Assembly: GCA_964590105.1 (NCBI GenBank)
Contig: CAZPYM010000002.1
Coordinates: 90,697 to 154,696, forward strand
Direction: 5' to 3'
From: an uncultured Gammaproteobacteria bacterium
Lineage (GTDB): Bacteria; Patescibacteriota; Patescibacteriia; UBA11705; JABHMO01
DNA: 64,000 nucleotides
A program made the translations under genes and the position numbers. The notes below the pieces were generated by a model. It was not told where the DNA came from. It did not search any database and saw only the letters and a program-made list of their open reading frames with translations. Each line of letters starts with the position of its first letter. Within the stretch, counting starts at the first letter, position 1. Shown in pieces: positions 9,277-36,812 of the stretch.

Positions 9277-9555
9277 TTAGTGAATCGTGCTGTTTGGCGG
9301 AATAGTGTCCGTCGCTTCAGCAGCTTCTTTTTCCTTATCACCGATTTGAATTTTGCGCTGTTTTTCTTTGAACAGATCATCTGCCAAGTTGAGCAGGCAG
9401 AGAAGAAGTCGGGTTGTTTCCGGTAAAGTCTTGCCAGGATTAAGTTGCTCCATTTTAGTCCTTATGCACTCTATCAGCTTGCCGATATGATCTTCTGATT
9501 CCTCTGTTTTTATTGAGAGTTTGTGTCCTAGGAGTTCAATCGTAAAGCTATTCAT
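9277..9555 (-). CDS. zapA: Cell division protein ZapA
   Basis: MNSFTIELLGHKLSIKTEESEDHIGKLIECIRTKMEQL... is typical of ZapA. Start taken at the Met preceded by GGAGGA. A terminator hairpin lies just downstream. Confidence 0.8.
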   Translation of the reverse strand: MNSFTIELLGHKLSIKTEESEDHIGKLIECIRTKMEQLNPGKTLPETTRLLLCLLNLADDLFKEKQRKIQIGDKEKEAAEATDTIPPNSTIH

Positions 9556-9629: not shown

Positions 9630-10100
9630 TTACGCTTTGGAAATAATATAATACCCAATTGCGCCAAAAGCCACGGAAACGTTTAAGCTTTCTTTGTCGC
9701 CGAGCATGGGAAGGTGAATTATTTTGTCACAACTTTTTTGAATATGAGCAGATATTCCCCTGACTTCATTGCCGAGGATAATGGCGACTTTATCTTTCGG
9801 GCGCCACTTTCTGAAATCCATGCTGGTTGTTTTGGTTTTTTCGAGGCCGATAATTTCGTAGCCCTGTTTTTTTAGTTCGTGCAATGTTGGCGCGAGTATG
9901 ATTTTCTTTTCCCACGGTACAGCCATCTCAGCGCCGAGCGCGGTTTTTGCCAGCCGGAGCGGTTGTTCTTTTGGCGACGCGGTATAGCCGGCTAAATAAA
10001 GTTTTTCCGCGCCGATCGCGTCGCAGGTGCGAAAAATTGAGCCGACATTATAAAGGCTACGGATATTATGGGCGATGATGATTATATTTGGTTTTTTCAT
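9630..10100 (-). CDS. SpoU/TrmH-family RNA 2'-O-methyltransferase
   Basis: SPOUT motifs are present: NVGSIFRTCDAIG, ILGNEVRGIS, LPMLGDKESLNVSVAFGI. Confidence 0.85.
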   Translation of the reverse strand: MKKPNIIIIAHNIRSLYNVGSIFRTCDAIGAEKLYLAGYTASPKEQPLRLAKTALGAEMAVPWEKKIILAPTLHELKKQGYEIIGLEKTKTTSMDFRKWRPKDKVAIILGNEVRGISAHIQKSCDKIIHLPMLGDKESLNVSVAFGAIGYYIISKA

Positions 10101-29354: not shown

Positions 29355-30227
29355 ATGTCGTCAGTAAATAAACTTATAACTGAATTTCTTTTTGACTTGA
29401 GAAAAAGAAAAAGAACCGAGCGCACGGCGCGCAACTATGATTTGTATTTACGCAGATTTTCAGGCTGGCTTGAGCAAAAGCAGATAGAAAACATGGGGCA
29501 AGTAACGCCGGAACTTATTGCCAAGTATAAAATTTGGCTAAAAAAAATAAAAAACCCGATAAAGAAAATTTATTTGAAAGAAAATACTCAGAATTATCAT
29601 TTGATTGCGCTAAGGGAGTTTATCAAGTATTTGGGAAAGAAAAAAATTTTGTCAATTACCAACCCGAAAATCAAATTGCCAAAAACCCTGAAAGTTAAGG
29701 CCGGCTTTCTCAGTAAAGAAGATGTTCAACTTTTATTGGAATCGCCAATGAAAATTTCACAACCCAGATTGATTCAGCTTCGCGATAGAGCGATATTGGA
29801 ATTGTTTTATTCTACCGGAATTCGAGTTTCTGAGGAGGCAAGCCTGCAGGTTAGCGATATAAATTTTCAAAAACAAGAAATTCTTGTTTGTTCCGGGCAG
29901 AAGAAAGAACGCAGAATTAAATTTTCCAATCAAGCCAAGCATTGGCTGGTTCAATATTTGGAAAGAAGAAAAAATAAAAGTAAATATGTTTTTGTGAGTC
30001 ACGACCGAGCAAAAGCAACAAGAGAAGATGCCGGGCTTAGCGCCAGAAGTTTAGAAAGAATAGTTGAAAAATATGCTAGAGGCGCCGGTATTGACAAAAA
30101 AGTCACTCCGCAGATGCTTCGTCATACATATGCATTTCTTTTGGTCGAAAGAACAGCTGATCCGCGGTCAGTTAAACAAAAACTCGGTCACCTTTCTCTA
30201 AATTCAGCGATGAGATACTTTGATTAA
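29355..30227 (+). CDS. Tyrosine site-specific recombinase (XerC/XerD-like integrase family)
   Basis: N-terminal SAM-like domain, then catalytic residues in the contexts GIRVSE (R), LRHTYAF (H-x-x-R) and GHLSLNSAMRY (H...Y). Confidence 0.85.
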   Translation: MSSVNKLITEFLFDLRKRKRTERTARNYDLYLRRFSGWLEQKQIENMGQVTPELIAKYKIWLKKIKNPIKKIYLKENTQNYHLIALREFIKYLGKKKILSITNPKIKLPKTLKVKAGFLSKEDVQLLLESPMKISQPRLIQLRDRAILELFYSTGIRVSEEASLQVSDINFQKQEILVCSGQKKERRIKFSNQAKHWLVQYLERRKNKSKYVFVSHDRAKATREDAGLSARSLERIVEKYARGAGIDKKVTPQMLRHTYAFLLVERTADPRSVKQKLGHLSLNSAMRYFD

Positions 30228-30589
30228 TCGTTTTTTTCGTGCTCGTTTCACTCGGTCGGAAACAGGGGGCGAAAGTTAATTGTTCCAAGTGTTGTAATCC
30301 GAACTTCGTGTATTATTGAAAAAAACTATTGTTTATGTTAGCATTACGGCGCCCTTTTACCTTTGCTCGTCCGAGCAAAGGTATTGTTCCTATCCTGCAA
30401 TTGCACATTACGCCTTATTACCCACTATTCGGTTGGAGCACTCACCACGAGTGCTCGCTATTTTTTTACTTTTAACGCATTTAAATAGGACCCTTTTGCT
30501 ATAAATATTGATTTAGTTTATGTTTTTAGATATGAATTGATTGACTATATATAGTAATCTGCTATAATTTTTTCAGAAAACGCACATAC

Positions 30590-30664
30590 GTCCCTATAGT
30601 TCAGTGGATAGAACACCAGCCTTCTAAGCTGGATACGCAGGTTCGATTCCTGCTGGGGACACCA
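30590..30664 (+). tRNA. tRNA-Arg (UCU), CCA encoded
   Basis: GUCCCUAUAGUUCAGUGGAUAGAACACCAGCCUUCUAAGCUGGAUACGCAGGUUCGAUUCCUGCUGGGGACACCA. A TTGACT-N16-TATAAT promoter lies at about 30541-30568. Confidence 0.9.
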
Positions 30665-30969
30665 TTTCGTTGGTAGTAGAAAGTGAAGAAGGGTTTACGG
30701 GATGTAATTGTAATATTAATTTAATATGACGCAGGTAAGACAGGGTGGATTCAGAATTTAAGTTGTTTAGCAATTAACCCAATTTAATATGAATAAAAAA
30801 AGAAAAGTTGCCATTAAGAAACAGCAAAAAAAGCAGGGAAAAGATGTACGATGCAGGTATAGATAATTTGCTGAAACGCTTGTAATATCAATTTATAATA
30901 ATATTTTACGACACTTTTTTGGTATTAATTTTATTATAATTATTGTTTTATCATGGCATTAATAGGGCT

Positions 30970-30991
30970 AAATGTTCCACGTGGAACATTT
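30970..30991 (+). terminator. Perfect 22-bp palindrome AAATGTTCCACGTGGAACATTT (copy 1), hairpin plus T-run on the plus strand
   Basis: Perfect palindrome followed by TTTTAT. Identical to the copy at 31641-31662. Confidence 0.5.
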
Positions 30992-31062
30992 TTATAATCT
31001 GATTCATGCGGGCTGAATTCGTTCAGCGAGTTCATTACCTAACTTACTTAATTTCTTTGCGT

Positions 31063-31137
31063 GCTCCCGTAGTTCAGTGGATAGAACAAGACACTCCTAA
31101 CGTCTAGACGCAGGTTCGATTCCTGCCGGGGGCACCA
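31063..31137 (+). tRNA. tRNA-Arg (CCU), CCA encoded
   Basis: GCUCCCGUAGUUCAGUGGAUAGAACAAGACACUCCUAACGUCUAGACGCAGGUUCGAUUCCUGCCGGGGGCACCA. Confidence 0.85.
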
Positions 31138-31640
31138 TGAATCACTTGCCCCTTTGGGACTCGGGTTCATGGCAAGCCATGAATATTAGAATATCTGTGG
31201 ATCTCGGGTTCATTCTTCCCGTGCACTTGAACACAGAAAGCAGTACATGGGCAACGGCGTTGATTGTGAAATGAATTTGGAAGCTGTTATCTTTGAGTAA
31301 ACAATACTAATTTGAAGTTAGTATTTTTTGTTTGCTAAAGCAATGTACAAATATCAAGAATCAATGATAAATGGTAATATTGCTCGTATTGCTGGACGGA
31401 TTTTATGAATAATGCAGGATTTGCTCGAATATTAAATAGCCCAATATTTTATAAAACACCAAAAACTGTGGAAAACATGGTGATAACTGTTGATTTTTGG
31501 GCTATTTGTACACACTAGTGTAGCCAAGTGGGGGGGCTTGGGTTTAGTAAATTGGAAATTCGGAATTGGGGTTGATGGGAAATTTAGTAATATTGATAGC
31601 TCAAAAAAAAACTAAAGAAGATTTGCTGGTAAAAAGAAAA

Positions 31641-31662
31641 AAATGTTCCACGTGGAACATTT
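31641..31662 (-). terminator. Perfect 22-bp palindrome AAATGTTCCACGTGGAACATTT (copy 2), hairpin plus T-run on the minus strand
   Basis: On the minus strand it is followed by TTTTTTCTTTTT, about 75 nt downstream of the TrmB-like gene stop. Confidence 0.55.
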
Positions 31663-31736
31663 GTACAAACATTCAGAAGGACATTTGATTTTGTTAGTCA
31701 TTTTATATGAATATATGAGTCGCAAAATAATAATTA

Positions 31737-32498
31737 TTAGTATTTCAATGTTTTAGCTGATTTCCATGCTTGTTCGAAAAGTGTTTTATGTGTTTCAGCC
31801 AAATCCTTGTTTTCAATAATGATCACGTAATATTTGTTTTTGTTATAAGGCAGGAAGGCAATTTTATTGCCAAAAATAATATTATCACCGCGACCGCAAC
31901 CAAATTTTTTGTTAAAAAAGCGAATTGTATGATTAGGGTTTTTAATTTTTGTAACAACATTGGCGTATTTTACGTTTGCTTCATCAAGGGGGAGGAGCTC
32001 GCGGGTTTTTACGTCGGGATTTTTTAAAGTGTCTTTATATTCTTCGAATATATCTGAATAAAGATCTACAGGTTCAATAATTGAACCATAAAAAACAGCT
32101 TCTTGGCCGGTTTTCAGAAAATTAAGAACCTCGCGGTAAACCTGCACCACCCCATCCTTTCCTTCAAAAAATTGAACTTCCGGTTTGTTAGGCTGTTGGT
32201 TATATATCGCCATCAAGTTTGGAATAGCCTTTTCTAGGTTCTTCTCTCGCTGCTTTAATTGGGTCAATAGATTCTTTGGTGAAGCGGCGCTATATAGCGT
32301 GGCTTTTTTTGTTTTGCGAAAACTGACAAGTCCGCGTTCTGCTAGGGTTTGAAGGATTACATAGGTTGTCGGGCGTTTAACTCGGGCAATTGTTGAAATA
32401 TTAAAAACCGTGTCTTCGCCCAACTGAAGACAAGTAAGGTAAATGGCGGACTGTTTTTGATCAAAGCCAATTGATTTTAGTGTTTGTGAGAGTTCCAT
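31737..32498 (-). CDS. TrmB-family transcriptional regulator (N-terminal wHTH)
   Basis: LKSIGFDQKQSAIYLTCLQLGEDTVFNISTIARVKRPTTYVILQTLAERGLV is a typical TrmB HTH. The promoter ATTGACAGTGAAAT-N-TATACT lies about 150 nt upstream, and the leader is GC-rich and structured. Confidence 0.75.
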   Translation of the reverse strand: MELSQTLKSIGFDQKQSAIYLTCLQLGEDTVFNISTIARVKRPTTYVILQTLAERGLVSFRKTKKATLYSAASPKNLLTQLKQREKNLEKAIPNLMAIYNQQPNKPEVQFFEGKDGVVQVYREVLNFLKTGQEAVFYGSIIEPVDLYSDIFEEYKDTLKNPDVKTRELLPLDEANVKYANVVTKIKNPNHTIRFFNKKFGCGRGDNIIFGNKIAFLPYNKNKYYVIIIENKDLAETHKTLFEQAWKSAKTLKY

Positions 32499-32743
32499 GG
32501 TTGAGGTCTGTCATGCTTTAAGGTTTTTGCGTATTCTCGCAAACACACCTCAGCGCGACAGGCAATAAGCCGTCACCCACCACGACGAGGCGTTTTATTA
32601 GAATACATAAAACCTCGGACTGGGACAGGGTGGGGGCAAGTAAAGTATAACAAACGTTTATTTCACTGTCAATATTTCTGACAACAGTTGCTAATAACTT
32701 GCGTTTTGTTATATAAAATTAGTCAAATAACCTTATATAATGA

Positions 32744-32772
32744 TTGACAGTAGATTTGCTATGTGCTATAAT
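32744..32772 (+). promoter_or_regulatory. Consensus sigma70 promoter of the two-gene cassette (shared promoter module)
   Basis: TTGACA (32744-32749), 17-nt spacer, TATAAT (32767-32772). The surrounding roughly 60 nt are closely similar to 35468-35526. Confidence 0.7.
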
Positions 32773-32908
32773 TCCGTGTTAGTTAAGGTTGGGAATTGTT
32801 CATTTAACTTTCAGTGGAGGGAAGCAGTGAAAAGATTTAACGACGATGATTTTAGCAATTTTATGTGTTGGGAAATGTTCGTTGATAATTTAATCATGGA
32901 GGAATGAA

Positions 32909-33442
32909 ATGGAAATTGCGAAAAAGATTGTCAACGGAAAATTTGAAAGTGCGTACAGGTATTTTATGAATAGACATAAGGGATGCTCTTCGTTAATGAT
33001 TGTTTTTTCTTCTTTTTTATCCCTTTGTCTTAGCGTCTGGACAGTGTTTGGTATTGTCGGCGGAACGGAAAACGAGCTTCAATGTTGCGTTGGTTTTTTT
33101 CTGTCGGGGTTTATGTTTTATGTTTGTCTGCGCCACAGTTTGATTGACGTAAATTCTGTAATTGTGCCGAAGATTTTGCTGAACGAGGTAACAATGTTTT
33201 GTATAGAGAATAAGCAGCTTTCTGTAGTTTTGTCATTGAGAAATAAAACAGAAAAAAGTGATGATGATTGCCTTGAATTGGATCAGCGACTAAATGCTTG
33301 CCAGATTTATCTTCAAAACAAGCGTTATGTAAATTTGGAAAAGAATAGGATTGAGAGATTAAAAAAATTAATTGCCTGCAAGGAAAAAGAAATTAATGAA
33401 TTTGAAAACGAATTTGGGCTTGGAGGTGATGATAATGCCTGA
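32909..33442 (+). CDS. Orphan membrane protein (2 TM) with a C-terminal coiled coil, 177 aa
   Basis: RBS GGAGGA. TM segments SSLMIVFSSFLSLCLSVWTVFGIV and CCVGFFLSGFMFYVCL. C-terminal heptad-like NRIERLKKLIACKEKEINEFENEF. I recognised no family. Confidence 0.6.
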   Translation: MEIAKKIVNGKFESAYRYFMNRHKGCSSLMIVFSSFLSLCLSVWTVFGIVGGTENELQCCVGFFLSGFMFYVCLRHSLIDVNSVIVPKILLNEVTMFCIENKQLSVVLSLRNKTEKSDDDCLELDQRLNACQIYLQNKRYVNLEKNRIERLKKLIACKEKEINEFENEFGLGGDDNA

Positions 33443-33929
33443 AAAAATCAGACCGATAAAATGGAAATGCAGTTGTTGCCAGCGAGTATATTCAGAAAAG
33501 AATTCAGCGATTGAATGTGAAAAAAGGGATGCATGGTTGATGAGAGTGAAGATTGCCCTGGATCAACATCTGCCAGCTAAAGCAATTTTTTGGCGTGGTG
33601 ATCGCGCAGGCGAATATACGGTCGTAACTTCGGAGCCGAAGTGCATTATGAAAGATTGTTTTCCTCAGAGTGATTGGCAAAACAAACCATTAGAACATTG
33701 GATCCGTTTGACCTTTGTTTTGTATCGCAATCGGGATGTTGGCAAAAAAGGTCGTGGGTTACCGCTCGAATGGGGTCATTCCGAACATTTGGAATTTAGA
33801 ATGTTTGACCCGGCTGTTTTTGAAAAGATCAAGGAAATTATGCGCGGAGAAATTGAAATTTGTGTTGTGTGGCCGAGCGCCGCAGAATTCTATAATGATT
33901 CCGAGCAGTTTGTAATAAAACGGAAGTAG
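33435..33929 (+). CDS. Orphan protein with an N-terminal Cys cluster (zinc-ribbon-like), 164 aa
   Basis: ATG at 33435 is preceded by GGAGGTG and overlaps the upstream stop by 8 nt. Sequence MPEKIRPIKWKCSCCQRVYSEKNSAIECEKRD... I recognised no family. Confidence 0.6.
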   Translation: MPEKIRPIKWKCSCCQRVYSEKNSAIECEKRDAWLMRVKIALDQHLPAKAIFWRGDRAGEYTVVTSEPKCIMKDCFPQSDWQNKPLEHWIRLTFVLYRNRDVGKKGRGLPLEWGHSEHLEFRMFDPAVFEKIKEIMRGEIEICVVWPSAAEFYNDSEQFVIKRK

Positions 33930-33936
33930 AGTAGAA

Positions 33937-33974
33937 AATTCCCACCTTGAGCATATTCAAGGTGGGAATTTTAT
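33937..33974. terminator. Bidirectional terminator hairpin between convergent genes
   Basis: 12-bp perfect stem aattcccacctt/aaggtgggaatt with A/T runs on both sides. Confidence 0.7.
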
Positions 33975-34196
33975 TTAGACGTTTATCTCGATTATTTTAT
34001 TTTTTTTACTTAGGCCAGATTTAACCGCAATTAATGACTTTGGTATTTTTAAGTATTCGCTTAAAAGATTAACTAGCGCCTTATTGGCTTTTCCTTTTTC
34101 CGGCGCGGCCGTTGTTCTCACATGAAAAAATTTAGATTTAAGTTGAATAACCTCATTGCGGGAGGCTTTGGTTGAGACTTTGACGTTAATTAGCAT
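33975..34196 (-). CDS. DUF167/YggU-family protein
   Basis: The 73-aa sequence VKVSTKASRNEV...VRTTAAPEKGKANKALVNLLSEYLKIPKSLIAVKSGLSKKNKIIEI matches the YggU pattern. Confidence 0.75.
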   Translation of the reverse strand: MLINVKVSTKASRNEVIQLKSKFFHVRTTAAPEKGKANKALVNLLSEYLKIPKSLIAVKSGLSKKNKIIEINV

Positions 34197-34283
34197 AATT
34201 TGATTTGAATAGGGGATATGGGTAGTGAATTCCTATAAATTGTAGCACAAATAAAAAAAGGGGAACATTGTTCCCCCAGCAGA

Positions 34284-34724
34284 CTATTTTTTGATTTTCC
34301 ATTGGGTAACTTGTTTAATCAACATCTTAACATCGCCCGGGCCATAGGGTAGGGTCAATTGGGCGGAGGGGATTTTGTTCGCGTATTGATCTAGCAAGGT
34401 CGGGGCAAATACCAACAGTTGGTAAGAGTCCGAATCCTTTAGGATTTCAGCACGGTGATCCACAAGACAAAGCCGTGGCGACGTTATTCTGCCAATGCAG
34501 GCCAGCGCCGTAATTTCGTTGTCGGGATACTGTTTCAAATCGTTTCTCACGTTGAGAATCAGCATTCCGTGTAAGTTGTCTATTGATTCAATCTCCAGCA
34601 AAATTTCATCTGAATTGGCGACGGGGGCCGGCGGGATGTTTTTTTCGACTGGAGTTGATTTGACTTTCTGCTGACATGCAATTGAAATCAAGCAACTGCA
34701 GATCATTAGTGCCGCATTTCTCAT
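34284..34724 (-). CDS. Orphan putative lipoprotein, 146 aa (GC-richer cassette)
   Basis: Signal peptide plus lipobox-like LISIAC. RBS GGAGGGA. Promoter TTGACA (34790-34785), N17, TAACTT. Terminator ggggaa-caatg-ttcccc plus T7 at 34252-34276. Confidence 0.6.
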   Translation of the reverse strand: MRNAALMICSCLISIACQQKVKSTPVEKNIPPAPVANSDEILLEIESIDNLHGMLILNVRNDLKQYPDNEITALACIGRITSPRLCLVDHRAEILKDSDSYQLLVFAPTLLDQYANKIPSAQLTLPYGPGDVKMLIKQVTQWKIKK

Positions 34725-34814
34725 GTGCTCCCTCCACGAATGAACAAAAGCAATAAGCTATAAGTTAGCATTTAAAAATAAATTTGTCAACGTCAAATGT
34801 CAGTTCAAATAAAA

Positions 34815-35420
34815 TTATTCAAACATGGACACATCTCCTTTTCCCCCACGAAGCACAATCGGTTCGTCGCCAGATAGATCAATTACTGATGAAGCTTCGT
34901 TTTTTAGAACGCCGGCGTCAATAATTAAATCAACCTTGTCGCCAAACTGTTTTTCAATTTCCAGTGGATCGGAAAAATTTGGTTCTTGCGTAATGTTCAC
35001 GCTGGTGCTGACGATCGGATTGCCAAGGGCTTTGATCAGTTGCAAACAAACTGAATTATTGGGAATGCGGATTGCCACTGTTTTTTTGTTTGGGATTAAT
35101 TCATTTGGAACAAGTTTGGTTGCTTTGAAAATAAAGGTGTAGGGACCAGGTAAAAGCCGTTTCATTGTTTTGTAAGCATAATCTGAAACAATGGCGTATT
35201 TGGATATTTCAGTTAAATCAGCGCAAATAAAACTAAAGCCAGTTGCTTTCTTTTTTTTAATTTTATAAATTCTCTCAACGGCTTGCTTGCAATATATATC
35301 GCAACCAAAGCCGTAAATCGTGTCGGTAGGGTAAACAATAACGCCGCAGTTTTTTAGAATATCCACGGCTTGTTTGATTTTTGGATATTCCGGGGTTTGA
35401 TTGTTGATTTCTATTAACAT
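34815..35420 (-). CDS. tsaC: L-threonylcarbamoyladenylate synthase (YrdC/TsaC/Sua5 family)
   Basis: YrdC-domain motifs VIVYPTDTIYGFGCD, KKKKATGFSFI, PGPYTFIF, AIRIPN and STSVN. Confidence 0.9.
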   Translation of the reverse strand: MLIEINNQTPEYPKIKQAVDILKNCGVIVYPTDTIYGFGCDIYCKQAVERIYKIKKKKATGFSFICADLTEISKYAIVSDYAYKTMKRLLPGPYTFIFKATKLVPNELIPNKKTVAIRIPNNSVCLQLIKALGNPIVSTSVNITQEPNFSDPLEIEKQFGDKVDLIIDAGVLKNEASSVIDLSGDEPIVLRGGKGDVSMFE

Positions 35421-35495
35421 AGGGTTACAGATGTACAGATCTGAATACAGATTATACAGATTTAAGTAAAATTAGTGAAAAGATGGCTAATATAA

Positions 35496-35524
35496 TTGAC
35501 AGTAGATTAAATATATGATATAAT
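35496..35524 (+). promoter_or_regulatory. Consensus sigma70 promoter (second copy of the shared module)
   Basis: TTGACA (35496-35501), 17-nt spacer, TATAAT (35519-35524). The ATTGACAGTAGATT core is identical to the 32743-32756 copy. Confidence 0.7.
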
Positions 35525-35556
35525 CCTTTTTGTTATTAATTTCAATGGGGGGTCTA

Positions 35557-35922
35557 ATGAAAAAGCGGTCATTGTTCTTTCGTCTGAAGTGGGGGAGAGT
35601 TCTGCTGATTTTGTTGGTTCCACTCTATGTGATGGGCGCGTCTGCGAATGCCAGAAGAACTGCTGCTGAACTTACTTCGGTTGCGGAGGCGTTCATGAGC
35701 GTTTCCGCCTATTGCAAGGCGGAAACAGAAGACAGCACTGAAAGGATCATGACCGTGCTCGACTGTGGCGGGGCCTATGATCCGCTAGTCCGCGAACGGG
35801 ACGAGATCGCGCACTCGCGCGGTTGCTGGAACGCGGCTAGCTGGAAGGTCTGGCAACAAGGACGTGACATGGTCAAAAGCACACCGATTGAGGTGTGGTG
35901 CCTCTCACCCTGGCCATTCTGA
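35557..35922 (+). CDS. Orphan secreted protein, 121 aa, 4 Cys (GC-richer cassette)
   Basis: MKKRSLFFRLKWGRVLLILLVPLYVMGASANA signal peptide. The mature part is Cys/Trp-containing. I recognised no family. Confidence 0.55.
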   Translation: MKKRSLFFRLKWGRVLLILLVPLYVMGASANARRTAAELTSVAEAFMSVSAYCKAETEDSTERIMTVLDCGGAYDPLVRERDEIAHSRGCWNAASWKVWQQGRDMVKSTPIEVWCLSPWPF

Positions 35923-36088
35923 AATCTCTCCTGGCCGGTTCAGGCCAAACCAATTCAAATGTTTTGTAAGACTCTCGCCCGTCTCACCGCGCGGGAGTTT
36001 TTGTTTTTTGGAAATTAGAAACTTGAAATTAGAAATTGGGGTAGCTGGCAATAATTTAACCTTCATCGTCTAACCCTAGTTTCCAGTT

Positions 36089-36598
36089 TCAAATTTCCAG
36101 TTTCTCCAGCAGTTTTAACTCTAGCTTCTTATCTTTGGTATCATAAATAGCAAAGCTTGCCCGGTAGAACATGCCGGCCAGGTTGCCGGGGTTAATAACA
36201 TTCGAATTATTAATTTTTTCTTGCCATGGCTTGTGGTTGTGTCCGTAAAAAACAAGATGGTATTTCCCTGAATTAGCCAAGCGTTTTGCTTTTACCTTTT
36301 CATGGCAGGCGGCTATTTTTATGTTATCGAAATCCAAATCGAGAAAGGGGACTGGGCCGTATTTTATCTTTTGAAAACGATTTGTCCTTTTTTGTTTTTG
36401 TTGTTTGCTTATATCAGCGTTGCCTTCAACAAAATATATTTTGCCTTGAAAATTGTTTATAAAAAAAGTTTTTGTTTCATCCTCGGTTACGTCGCCGCAG
36501 TGGATTATAGTATCAATTTTCCGTTCATGGCAATAAGACAGAAATTTGGAAATGTTTGTTAAATTGTCGTGGGAGTCAGAACAGATGGCGAAGAGCAT
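36089..36598 (-). CDS. YfcE/MJ0936-family metallophosphoesterase
   Basis: ICSDSHDN, HCGDV and YGHNHKPW are calcineurin-like phosphoesterase motifs. Start taken at MLFAICSD. Confidence 0.8.
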   Translation of the reverse strand: MLFAICSDSHDNLTNISKFLSYCHERKIDTIIHCGDVTEDETKTFFINNFQGKIYFVEGNADISKQQKQKRTNRFQKIKYGPVPFLDLDFDNIKIAACHEKVKAKRLANSGKYHLVFYGHNHKPWQEKINNSNVINPGNLAGMFYRASFAIYDTKDKKLELKLLEKLEI

Positions 36599-36812
36599 AT
36601 TTATGAAAGGTGAGAAGTAAAAAAGCAAGAAAATAAAAAATCAATGAAACAACAAAGCAAAAATAAAATACAAAATTAATTAATAAAACAAAAAATAATA
36701 AAATAATTGGATTAAACTTTTTGCCATTAACTCTAATTTCTAGTTTCCGGTTTCAAGCTCCATTTGTCTTTCTGCTTAGATTATTGCATCTTTCCTAATT
36801 TTGCGCAAATGC

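Follow-up and report, generated by a model that had tools for sequence, protein, structure and literature searches.

The 64,000-nt stretch analysed here (contig CAZPYM010000002.1, hereafter the window) holds a gene for a TrmB-like regulator, transcribed divergently from a predicted promoter, P32.7, and a second predicted promoter, P35.5, in the same orientation as P32.7 and 2.75 kb from it. We consider it rather probable that three promoters, the regulator's own, P32.7 and P35.5, carry the cis-regulatory signature of the local TrmB-family regulator, P35.5 having been recruited later. The sequences, their conservation, co-variation and spacing were observed directly and carry this reading. The initial annotation had offered two explanations: a portable promoter segment travelling with gene cassettes, or a shared operator at the -35 box, possibly controlled by the TrmB-like protein. 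The second is upheld by phylogenetic footprinting for the regulator's own and the partner promoters and is plausible for P35.5, but it is not supported for two further promoters, at 39.63 and 54.97 kb.

The regulator promoter matches the consensus in 11 of 12 positions and has a TG extension (Table 1). The -35 and -10 boxes lie as first described, and the overlap with an imperfect inverted repeat was borne out: this divergent promoter holds ATTGACAGTGAAAT within TGTCA-N7-TGACA. The repeat was found once in the window, where 0.05 occurrences are expected, and it is probably an autoregulatory operator. The relatives compared were contigs encoding regulator homologues and syntenic loci found via Sua5 homologues (loci labelled L001-L155); the closest named relatives of the window proteins are annotated as Candidatus Kuenenbacteria or Falkowbacteria, of the Candidate Phyla Radiation (CPR)/Patescibacteria. 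The strain-level contigs L001-L006 are 100% identical to the window and thus leave no strain polymorphism to compare. The pattern TGTTGTCA-N6-TTGAC(A/T) lies over the -35 of the TrmB-like gene, with a correctly spaced -10, in all 7 species covered (protein identities in Table 1). The contig of another homologue (L010, 66%) is cut at the operator site, and its remaining sequence fits the same pattern. The rest of the regulator intergenic regions can barely be aligned between relatives. The regulator promoter also keeps TTGACAGT(A/G)AA(A/T)T in L007, L011, L010 and L151.

The clade DNA searched for the operator, the distal block described below and TTGACAGT amounts to 179 kb from eleven loci; site counts refer to the window and these clade loci. 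TGTCA-N7-TGAC was detected there at regulator promoters and at one extra site, TGTCAATGCAACTGAC (L007 7211-7226), located in an intergenic gap of the cargo region and the sole occurrence off regulator promoters.

At the divergent partner promoter, TTGACAGTA is retained down to 41% regulator identity (window, L007, L011 and L151), and TACTGTCAA is invariant in the four-species alignment A2 of this promoter. In the subclade of L152, L153 and L155 the regulator promoter reads TTGACTTTT and the partner promoter lacks GT too, showing that the two promoters change together. Upstream of the partner promoter lies a distal block, for which the expression AAAATTAGYSAAA matched in the intergenic region beside the regulator gene of the window, L007 and L151 (41%), at the window's P35.5 and nowhere else; the block of L011 is weaker, TTAGAGAA. 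The combination of TTGACAGT with a good -10 was found only at regulator promoters, partner promoters and P35.5, the same distribution as that of the distal block.

The regulator gene and a divergent promoter 70-92 nt away are kept together in 7 species, with 71, 71, 81, 92, 70, 70 and 70 bases between the two -35 boxes. The distal block starts 29 nt before the -35 in the window and in L007, 39 nt in L151 and 28 nt at P35.5. Given these offsets and the gaps of 71, 81 and 92 nt, the spacing shifts by about 10-11 bp, about whole helical turns.

The cargo behind the partner promoter is not kept. BLASTP of the window cargo (Table 1) against the cargo of L011, L151, L152, L153 and L155 detected no similarity, and Pfam, NCBIfam and PADLOC gave no matches to the cargo proteins. 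The window and L007 cargo share a short N-terminal resemblance visible by eye and below the BLASTP threshold: the product of the small open reading frame (ORF), ..DFSNFMCWEMFVDNLIMEE, resembles the N-terminus of a 111-aa protein of L007, ..DFMGWELFLDNLEGK, which looks like a fusion of the small ORF with the gene that follows it. Since the driven genes are non-homologous between relatives, the conserved unit is the regulator with its two-way control region, the cargo being exchangeable. What survives of the portable idea, as far as these comparisons reach, is the same pairing of a conserved regulator and control region with cargo that differs between relatives.

Within the window, P32.7 and P35.5 are both predicted promoters with a 12/12 match to sigma-70 (TTGACA-17-TATAAT, TG extended -10). 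They share the exact 14-mer ATTGACAGTAGATT (32743-32756 and 35495-35508), which has no other match in the window at up to 2 mismatches, and AAAATTAGTsAAA, exact at 32715-32727 and 35468-35480 and nowhere else in the window. Among 105 pairs of strong window promoters the mean non-consensus identity is 16.0 +/- 2.9; this pair, with 28 identities over 46 non-consensus positions, ranks first and stands 4 sd higher. The claim of clear homology between 32716-32772 and 35468-35524 was partly justified: the segments read as quoted and are the top pair, but the likeness was overstated, as about 15 of the roughly 57 positions are sigma-70 consensus (-35, TG, -10). The P35.5 core is likewise identical to P32.7 in 25 of 30 nt, yet it is identical to the P35.5 orthologues of other species in 20-22 of 30. 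The products of the two promoters are unrelated, as stated before, with no BLASTP similarity between the 177- and 164-aa proteins of P32.7 and the 121-aa protein of P35.5.

A generic promoter context, in which the likeness would be that of very strong consensus promoters only, had been named as a finding that would overturn the whole proposal. Many promoters of the window do match 11-12/12 with TG, and the pattern TTGACAGTRRRWT..TGnTAHAMT is common in other phyla (at least 120 matches). GT after TTGACA was present in 0 of 12 other strong window promoters and the distal block likewise in none, so the motif is not the generic promoter context of the genome; together with the distance of the pair from the pairwise mean, this largely refutes the explanation within the window and makes it extremely improbable. 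Two further links of the initial annotation were not confirmed. The 39.63-kb promoter, TTGACAGATTG, shares TTGACAG alone, without GT and without the distal block, and G after TTGACA is common among the window's strong promoters. The sequence shared with the 54.97-kb promoter, ATGTGCTAT, is mostly the TGnTAT extended -10, with 2 matches against 0.4 expected, a count reached in 5 of 100 shuffles. Both links are at chance level.

Other symmetries were considered and rejected. Neither P32.7 nor P35.5 has an extended palindrome, there being no TGTCA partner at N7 on either side. The GTCAA-N17-TTGAC symmetry between distal block and core is not kept in P35.5, L007 or L011. A CtsR-like reading of AGTCAAA in the distal block was dropped because it has no second heptad. 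On the minus strand, the P35.5 distal block also gives TTCACT, the -35-like box of the divergent Sua5 promoter.

The gene behind P35.5, encoding a 121-aa signal-peptide protein, has weak but significant BLASTP similarity to its positional orthologues (L149, E=6e-10; L007, E=4e-6), and we take it to be a fast-evolving, positionally conserved backbone gene and not a cassette. The backbone genes are arranged as trigger factor, AP endonuclease, a 211-aa gene, metallophosphoesterase, the small secreted-protein gene, Sua5 and DUF167, followed by a variable region, two tRNA-Arg genes, the Xer-type integrase, S15 and PNPase. Within the variable region sit the TrmB-like gene and its cargo, both of which L147-L150 lack. 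Of the two unrelated cassettes first described, only one has held up: P32.7 drives variable cargo, but P35.5 drives a conserved backbone gene. The stretch from DUF167 (33975-34196) to the Xer-type integrase (29355-30227), beside the two tRNA-Arg genes, is a hypervariable hotspot (about 29355-34200) that measures about 0.5-1.5 kb in L149 and L147 and about 7 kb in L007 and L150; each relative has its own, unrelated small genes there.

The promoters orthologous to P35.5 read TTGACAAAAGT (TTGACAAAA(A)GT..) in L007, L147 and L149 and TTTGACAGGGG in L150 (Table 1). GTAGATT is present in none of these four relatives and was found in the window only, indicating that the motif was gained in the window lineage alone. 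P35.5 is a mosaic: outside the blocks and between them its sequence follows the orthologues (aaaaGAtGG upstream, TTAA in the spacer, attaatttcaatgg in the leader), and its resemblance to P32.7 coincides with the two blocks showing cross-species conservation. Compared with L007, 13 positions differ, 10 of which equal P32.7 (binomial P of about 0.002-0.008). Such a mosaic fits selection for the same binding sites, or short-patch conversion, and not a transplanted promoter cassette. Any co-regulation of P35.5 would be a recent, lineage-specific addition, since L007 has the regulator but no motif at this place.

These observations bear directly on the portable promoter segment, which we consider very unlikely to move with gene cassettes. 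The region from DUF167 to the Xer-type integrase is hypervariable between relatives, an insertion sequence (IS) element lies within P35.5 in L146, and a second leader module is common to Sua5 of the window and the trigger-factor gene of L147 and L149, all of which would suit mobility. Against it, P35.5 serves a backbone gene, and four relatives hold the orthologous promoter, lacking GTAGATT, at the same place, with no empty sites. Neither copy was reported to be bounded by terminal repeats or target duplications, two copies only are present in the window, the two-block module was found in no viral contig, and the metagenome matches to the core lack the distal block.

The IS element of L146 (Sua5 96% identical; 1424-1512) encodes a DDE_Tnp_1 transposase of 389 aa and interrupts the P35.5 region directly behind the distal block (aaaattagtgagaatatggc|...), so that the -35/-10 core is no longer beside Sua5.

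A more serious alternative, which we regard as possible though not favoured, accepts the control region of the regulator as real and takes the P35.5 likeness to be without regulatory meaning, a product of short ectopic gene conversion or drift. Few changes would have been needed, because the ancestral promoters already had TAAAATT..AAAA, ATTGACA and TGnTATAAT; it is a single event, P35.5 has no TGTCA partner arm, and the L007 orthologue lacks the motif despite the L007 regulator. The arrangement of the changes argues the other way: the P32.7-like patches coincide exactly with the two cross-species conserved blocks, the block spacing is kept (28 vs 29 nt) and 10 of the 13 derived positions point to P32.7. 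A single conversion tract is further opposed by aaaaGAtGG and the spacer TTAA between the blocks, which remain orthologous.

The candidate binder belongs to the TrmB family by PF01978 (40.7 bits against a cut-off of 25.6; residues 7-75, E=2.1e-10), and its residues 2-150 were aligned by phmmer with residues 6-147 of Pyrococcus furiosus TrmB (3qph, E=1.8e-4). It falls outside the NCBIfam equivalogs for sugar-sensing TrmB/TrmBL1 (NF040851, NF047390, NF047392), scoring 20.8-28 bits against cut-offs of 500-650, with matches limited to the N-terminal 120-160 residues, and Pfam gave no family above threshold for the C-terminal part. In an AlphaFold2 (AF2) model from 8 sequences, a winged helix is followed by a long helix and an alpha/beta C-terminal domain; the mean predicted local distance difference test (pLDDT) is 65, with 79-94 in the winged helix and only 49-67 at the helix of residues 74-100. 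The best Foldseek matches of the model are TrmBL2 chains (E of about 1e-7); next come MarR-type regulators, some methyltransferases and TrmB. In both operator subclades the recognition helix reads KRPTTY without exception, and the wing differs (RKTKKA vs LPKKVK); speculatively, this difference could be related to the changed half-site flank. PADLOC and PHROGs, applied to the regulator and cargo proteins, gave nothing useful. A second TrmB-like paralogue lies about 2 kb from the first in L151 (6055-6792) and L153 (5173-5898); it has a divergent promoter pair with TTGACAA, without TGTCA-N7-TGACA and without GT.

The blocks could also be bound by another factor (a global regulator, a nucleoid protein or an alternative sigma preferring the extended -35 TTGACAGT), the TrmB-like gene being one of its targets. 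The protein is tied to the DNA by adjacency and co-conservation alone, and TrmBL2, which it resembles most in structure, is a chromatin protein that binds largely non-specifically. We consider such a factor unlikely, since in the 179 kb from eleven loci the motif was found only beside TrmB-like genes, plus P35.5, and the syntenic loci without a TrmB-like gene (L147, L149, L150) show no promoter-context copy. Moreover, the motif flank co-varies with the regulator subclade, and the -10 and TG elements are those of standard sigma-70.

In the operator reading that we prefer, a dimer of the 253-aa winged-helix protein would bind the 17-bp TGTCA-N7-TGACA and, as its right arm is the -35 hexamer of the regulator promoter, would shut that promoter by blocking sigma-70 (autorepression). 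The partner promoter, with the half-site-like -35 TTGACAGTA and the distal block, lies about 70 bp away; held on the same helix face, it would be repressed together with the regulator promoter, probably through cooperative binding or looping, and a signal or ligand sensed by the C-terminal domain would relieve the repression. P35.5, in this species only, would have acquired both blocks in the same arrangement and was probably drawn into the same small regulon. Repression rather than activation suits the locus because all three promoters are of consensus strength. We infer the TrmB-like protein as the binder, the repression and the co-regulation of P35.5 from these sequence features.

Several points weigh against this proposal. 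The half-site TGACA belongs to every consensus -35, and only GT(A) and the distal block distinguish P32.7 and P35.5, which, with a half-site that is part of the consensus -35, are without the full palindrome. The helical phasing rests on two or three independent indel events, and the structural model of the regulator is of low confidence (pLDDT 65). Regulon membership is not conserved, as L007 has the regulator and its P35.5 orthologue is without the motif; P35.5 itself represents one event only, for which short-patch conversion could account. In addition, the motif may be commoner in the genome, whose window-bearing contig spans about 594 kb, than it appears in the 64 kb.

The proposed arrangement was compared with known systems. 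Divergent regulator-target pairs, such as TetR-tetA and many MarR/IclR loci, are autoregulated, with operators over both promoters and consensus-strength promoters that are silenced. As in these pairs, the regulator gene here is transcribed away from the target operon and the putative operator lies over the -35; unlike in them, about 70-92 bp separate the -35 boxes, a distance that varies by helical turns, a full palindrome is missing on the target side, and the target genes have been exchanged between relatives. Helical-phase-dependent repression loops are formed by GalR, AraC and DeoR, where the bound proteins must face each other. The variation of the inter-site distance by about 10-11 bp (71/81/92 nt) resembles such loops, although here it is seen from sequence and in few indel events.

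Archaeal TrmB of P. furiosus and Thermococcus litoralis, acting at the malE (TM) and mdxE (MD) promoters, is of the same family. After its PF01978 winged helix it has a long helix, the dimerisation arm in 3qph, to which the low-confidence helix of residues 74-100 in the model may correspond. It has a palindromic operator over core promoter elements and binds a half-site at a second promoter with weaker affinity (PMC4158304); in P. furiosus malE carries the full palindrome, whereas mdxE has a half-site only, about 8-fold weaker in affinity and in repression (PMC4158304). In both cases repression blocks, or would block, recruitment of the transcription machinery, but the archaeal protein blocks BRE/TATA, whereas the CPR regulator would block the sigma-70 -35 box. 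The operators differ (TACT-N3-AGTA vs TGTCA-N7-TGACA), and the CPR protein is without the sugar-binding C-terminal domain of TrmB, in line with its equivalog scores. TrmBL2 of Thermococcales (PDB 5bpd/5box/5bqt), which gave the best structural matches, has a similar length (about 260 aa) and domain order. Its DNA binding is largely independent of sequence, coating coding as well as intergenic regions (PMC4158304). The CPR protein, unlike TrmBL2, is associated with a specific, conserved 17-bp inverted repeat at one promoter, and the sequence similarity between the two is marginal (E=0.24).

CPR/Patescibacteria are uncultured bacteria with very small genomes and, to our knowledge, few regulators, and we know of almost no experimental work on their transcription control; our literature search on TrmB in Patescibacteria and on CPR regulons found nothing relevant. 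The locus would be an ordinary kind of local gene switch, pointing to no new mechanism but as yet undescribed in CPR, and is notable mainly for its CPR host and the exchangeable cargo. We tentatively suggest, as a less certain extension, that the TrmB-like gene and its phase-locked control region form a self-contained CPR regulatory module, which annexes backbone promoters by few point changes. If so, the module would stay intact in hypervariable regions while the controlled genes are exchanged, and the growth of a regulon would be visible in a minimal genome with very few regulators. The items that can be tested are TGTCA-N7-TGACA on a sigma-70 -35, a candidate binder from a mostly archaeal family, a regulon of two or three promoters, and a dated motif gain. 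If confirmed, this would be an early characterised regulator-operator pair in CPR and an example of a regulator module with exchangeable cargo.

Larger collections were also scanned. The pattern TTGACAGTRRRWT-N7-TGNTAHAMT gave at least 120 matches in the genome collection, in Clostridia and other Bacillota, with no Kuenenbacteria/Falkowbacteria locus among the matches listed; by itself it is too generic to be lineage-specific. The metagenome scan for ATTGACAGTAGATT-N7-TGNTATAAT gave 14 matches, 11 of them one promoter of a low-GC bacterium, mainly from gut samples. All came from unrelated organisms and the distal block was present in 0 of 14. The window's own two sites are absent from these matches, meaning that the collection lacks this genome and is silent on its copy number. 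In viral contigs the two-block pattern had 0 matches and the 16-base operator pattern 68, the best with a -10 match of 5/6 at 16-18 nt spacing and most with 3/6 or less. As none of the 68 has a full -10 or a TrmB homologue nearby, they serve as a chance-level control only.

Comparison of k-mers among the 55 intergenic regions of the window detected sharing of A/T runs and GTAAATTTAC only, and a wider regulon is not supported. The near-palindromic k-mers GTAAATTTAC / TGTAAATTT occur in 6 of the 55 regions (starts 1, 2908, 14041, 23578, 46546 and 61206) and could be another regulatory motif.

Table 1. Features of the TrmB-like locus and P35.5 in the window (window positions), P35.5-orthologous promoters and regulator homologues in relatives.
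Feature	Position	Strand	Description
TrmB-like regulator gene, 253 aa	31737-32498	-	winged helix-turn-helix, long helix, C-terminal alpha/beta domain (predicted)
Regulator leader, ~139 nt	32499-32637	-	two ~55-nt hairpin elements, loops TATTCT and AGAATA
Regulator promoter (predicted)	32644-32672	-	-35 TTGACA 32672-32667, 17-nt spacer from GTGAAAT, TG, -10 TATACT 32649-32644
Inverted repeat TGTCAatatttcTGACA	32667-32683		TGTCA-N7-TGACA; one arm is the regulator -35 box
P32.7 distal block	32715-32727	+	AAAATTAGTCAAA; starts 29 nt upstream of the -35 box
P32.7 (predicted)	32743-32772	+	ATTGACAGTAGATT core, -35 32744-32749, TG extension, -10 TATAAT 32767-32772
P32.7 cargo operon	32827-33972	+	26-codon ORF, 177-aa gene, 164-aa gene, terminator hairpin
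Small ORF, 26 codons	32827-32907	+	GTG start after GGAGGG; precedes the 177-aa gene
177-aa membrane/coiled-coil protein	32909-33442	+	from the ORF list
164-aa protein	33435-33929	+	from the ORF list
Terminator hairpin	33935-33972	+	perfect 16-bp stem
Sua5 promoter (predicted)	35479-35451	-	TTCACT-17-TATAAT
P35.5 distal block	35468-35480	+	AAAATTAGTGAAA; starts 28 nt before the -35 box
P35.5 (predicted)	35495-35524	+	ATTGACAGTAGATT core, -35 35496-35501, TG extension, -10 TATAAT 35519-35524
121-aa signal-peptide protein gene	35557-35922	+	driven by P35.5; between the metallophosphoesterase gene and Sua5
P35.5 orthologue, L007			ATTGACAaaaagttaagagtaTGcTATACT
P35.5 orthologue, L147			ATTGACAaaagttaaaaagtgTGcTATAAT
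P35.5 orthologue, L149			gTTGACAaaagtctcgaagtgTGaTATAAT
P35.5 orthologue, L150			TTTGACAggggtat...
Regulator homologues with TGTTGTCA-N6-TTGAC(A/T)			protein identity: window 100%, L007 77%, L011 60%, L151 41%, L155 38%, L153 37%, L152 34%

The leader of the regulator gene has a predicted RNA fold of -49.4 kcal/mol (z=-3.8), and its two hairpin elements are in inverted orientation, GAGGTTTTATG-TATTCT-...AAAAC..CCTC (window 32499-32640). These elements are present in the window and L007 only, the short leaders of L011, L010 and L151 being without them. In L007 two direct hairpin copies (9446-9505 and 9850-9915) lie on either side of a 107-aa GIY-YIG gene that interrupts the leader, suggesting that the hairpin is a small mobile or palindromic element. 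The Rfam scan of the window at gathering thresholds detected tRNAs alone, with no match in this leader.

Other repeats were detected around the two loci. The Sua5 leader contains TACAGAT four times in tandem (35421-35462, minus-strand gene; ATCTGTA on the Sua5 strand). In L007 ATCAGTA is present three times instead, so the copies differ in concert. Over about 55 nt, the leader sequence aatctgtataatctgtattcagatctgtacatctgtaaccctATG shares 82-84% identity with the stretch immediately preceding the trigger-factor gene in L147 (5657-5711) and L149 (2865-2919), and is a second promoter/leader module common to unrelated genes.

A perfect 18-bp palindrome, ATGTTCCACGTGGAACAT, occurs twice in the window (30972-30989 and 31643-31660; 0 expected), once upstream of tRNA-Arg(CCT) and once just 3' of the TrmB-like gene, where it resembles a terminator of this gene. 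Its 16-bp core is found at apparently intergenic positions in relatives, including a distant lineage (L007 11313; L147 11866 and 12893; L149 8540 and 9694; L152 281). Finally, GAAAyTnGAAAyT-type repeats, direct and inverted, bracket the metallophosphoesterase gene (36089-36628) at 36009-36057, 36076-36103 and 36715-36754 and occur again at 31549-31581, between tRNA-Arg(CCT) and the TrmB-like gene.

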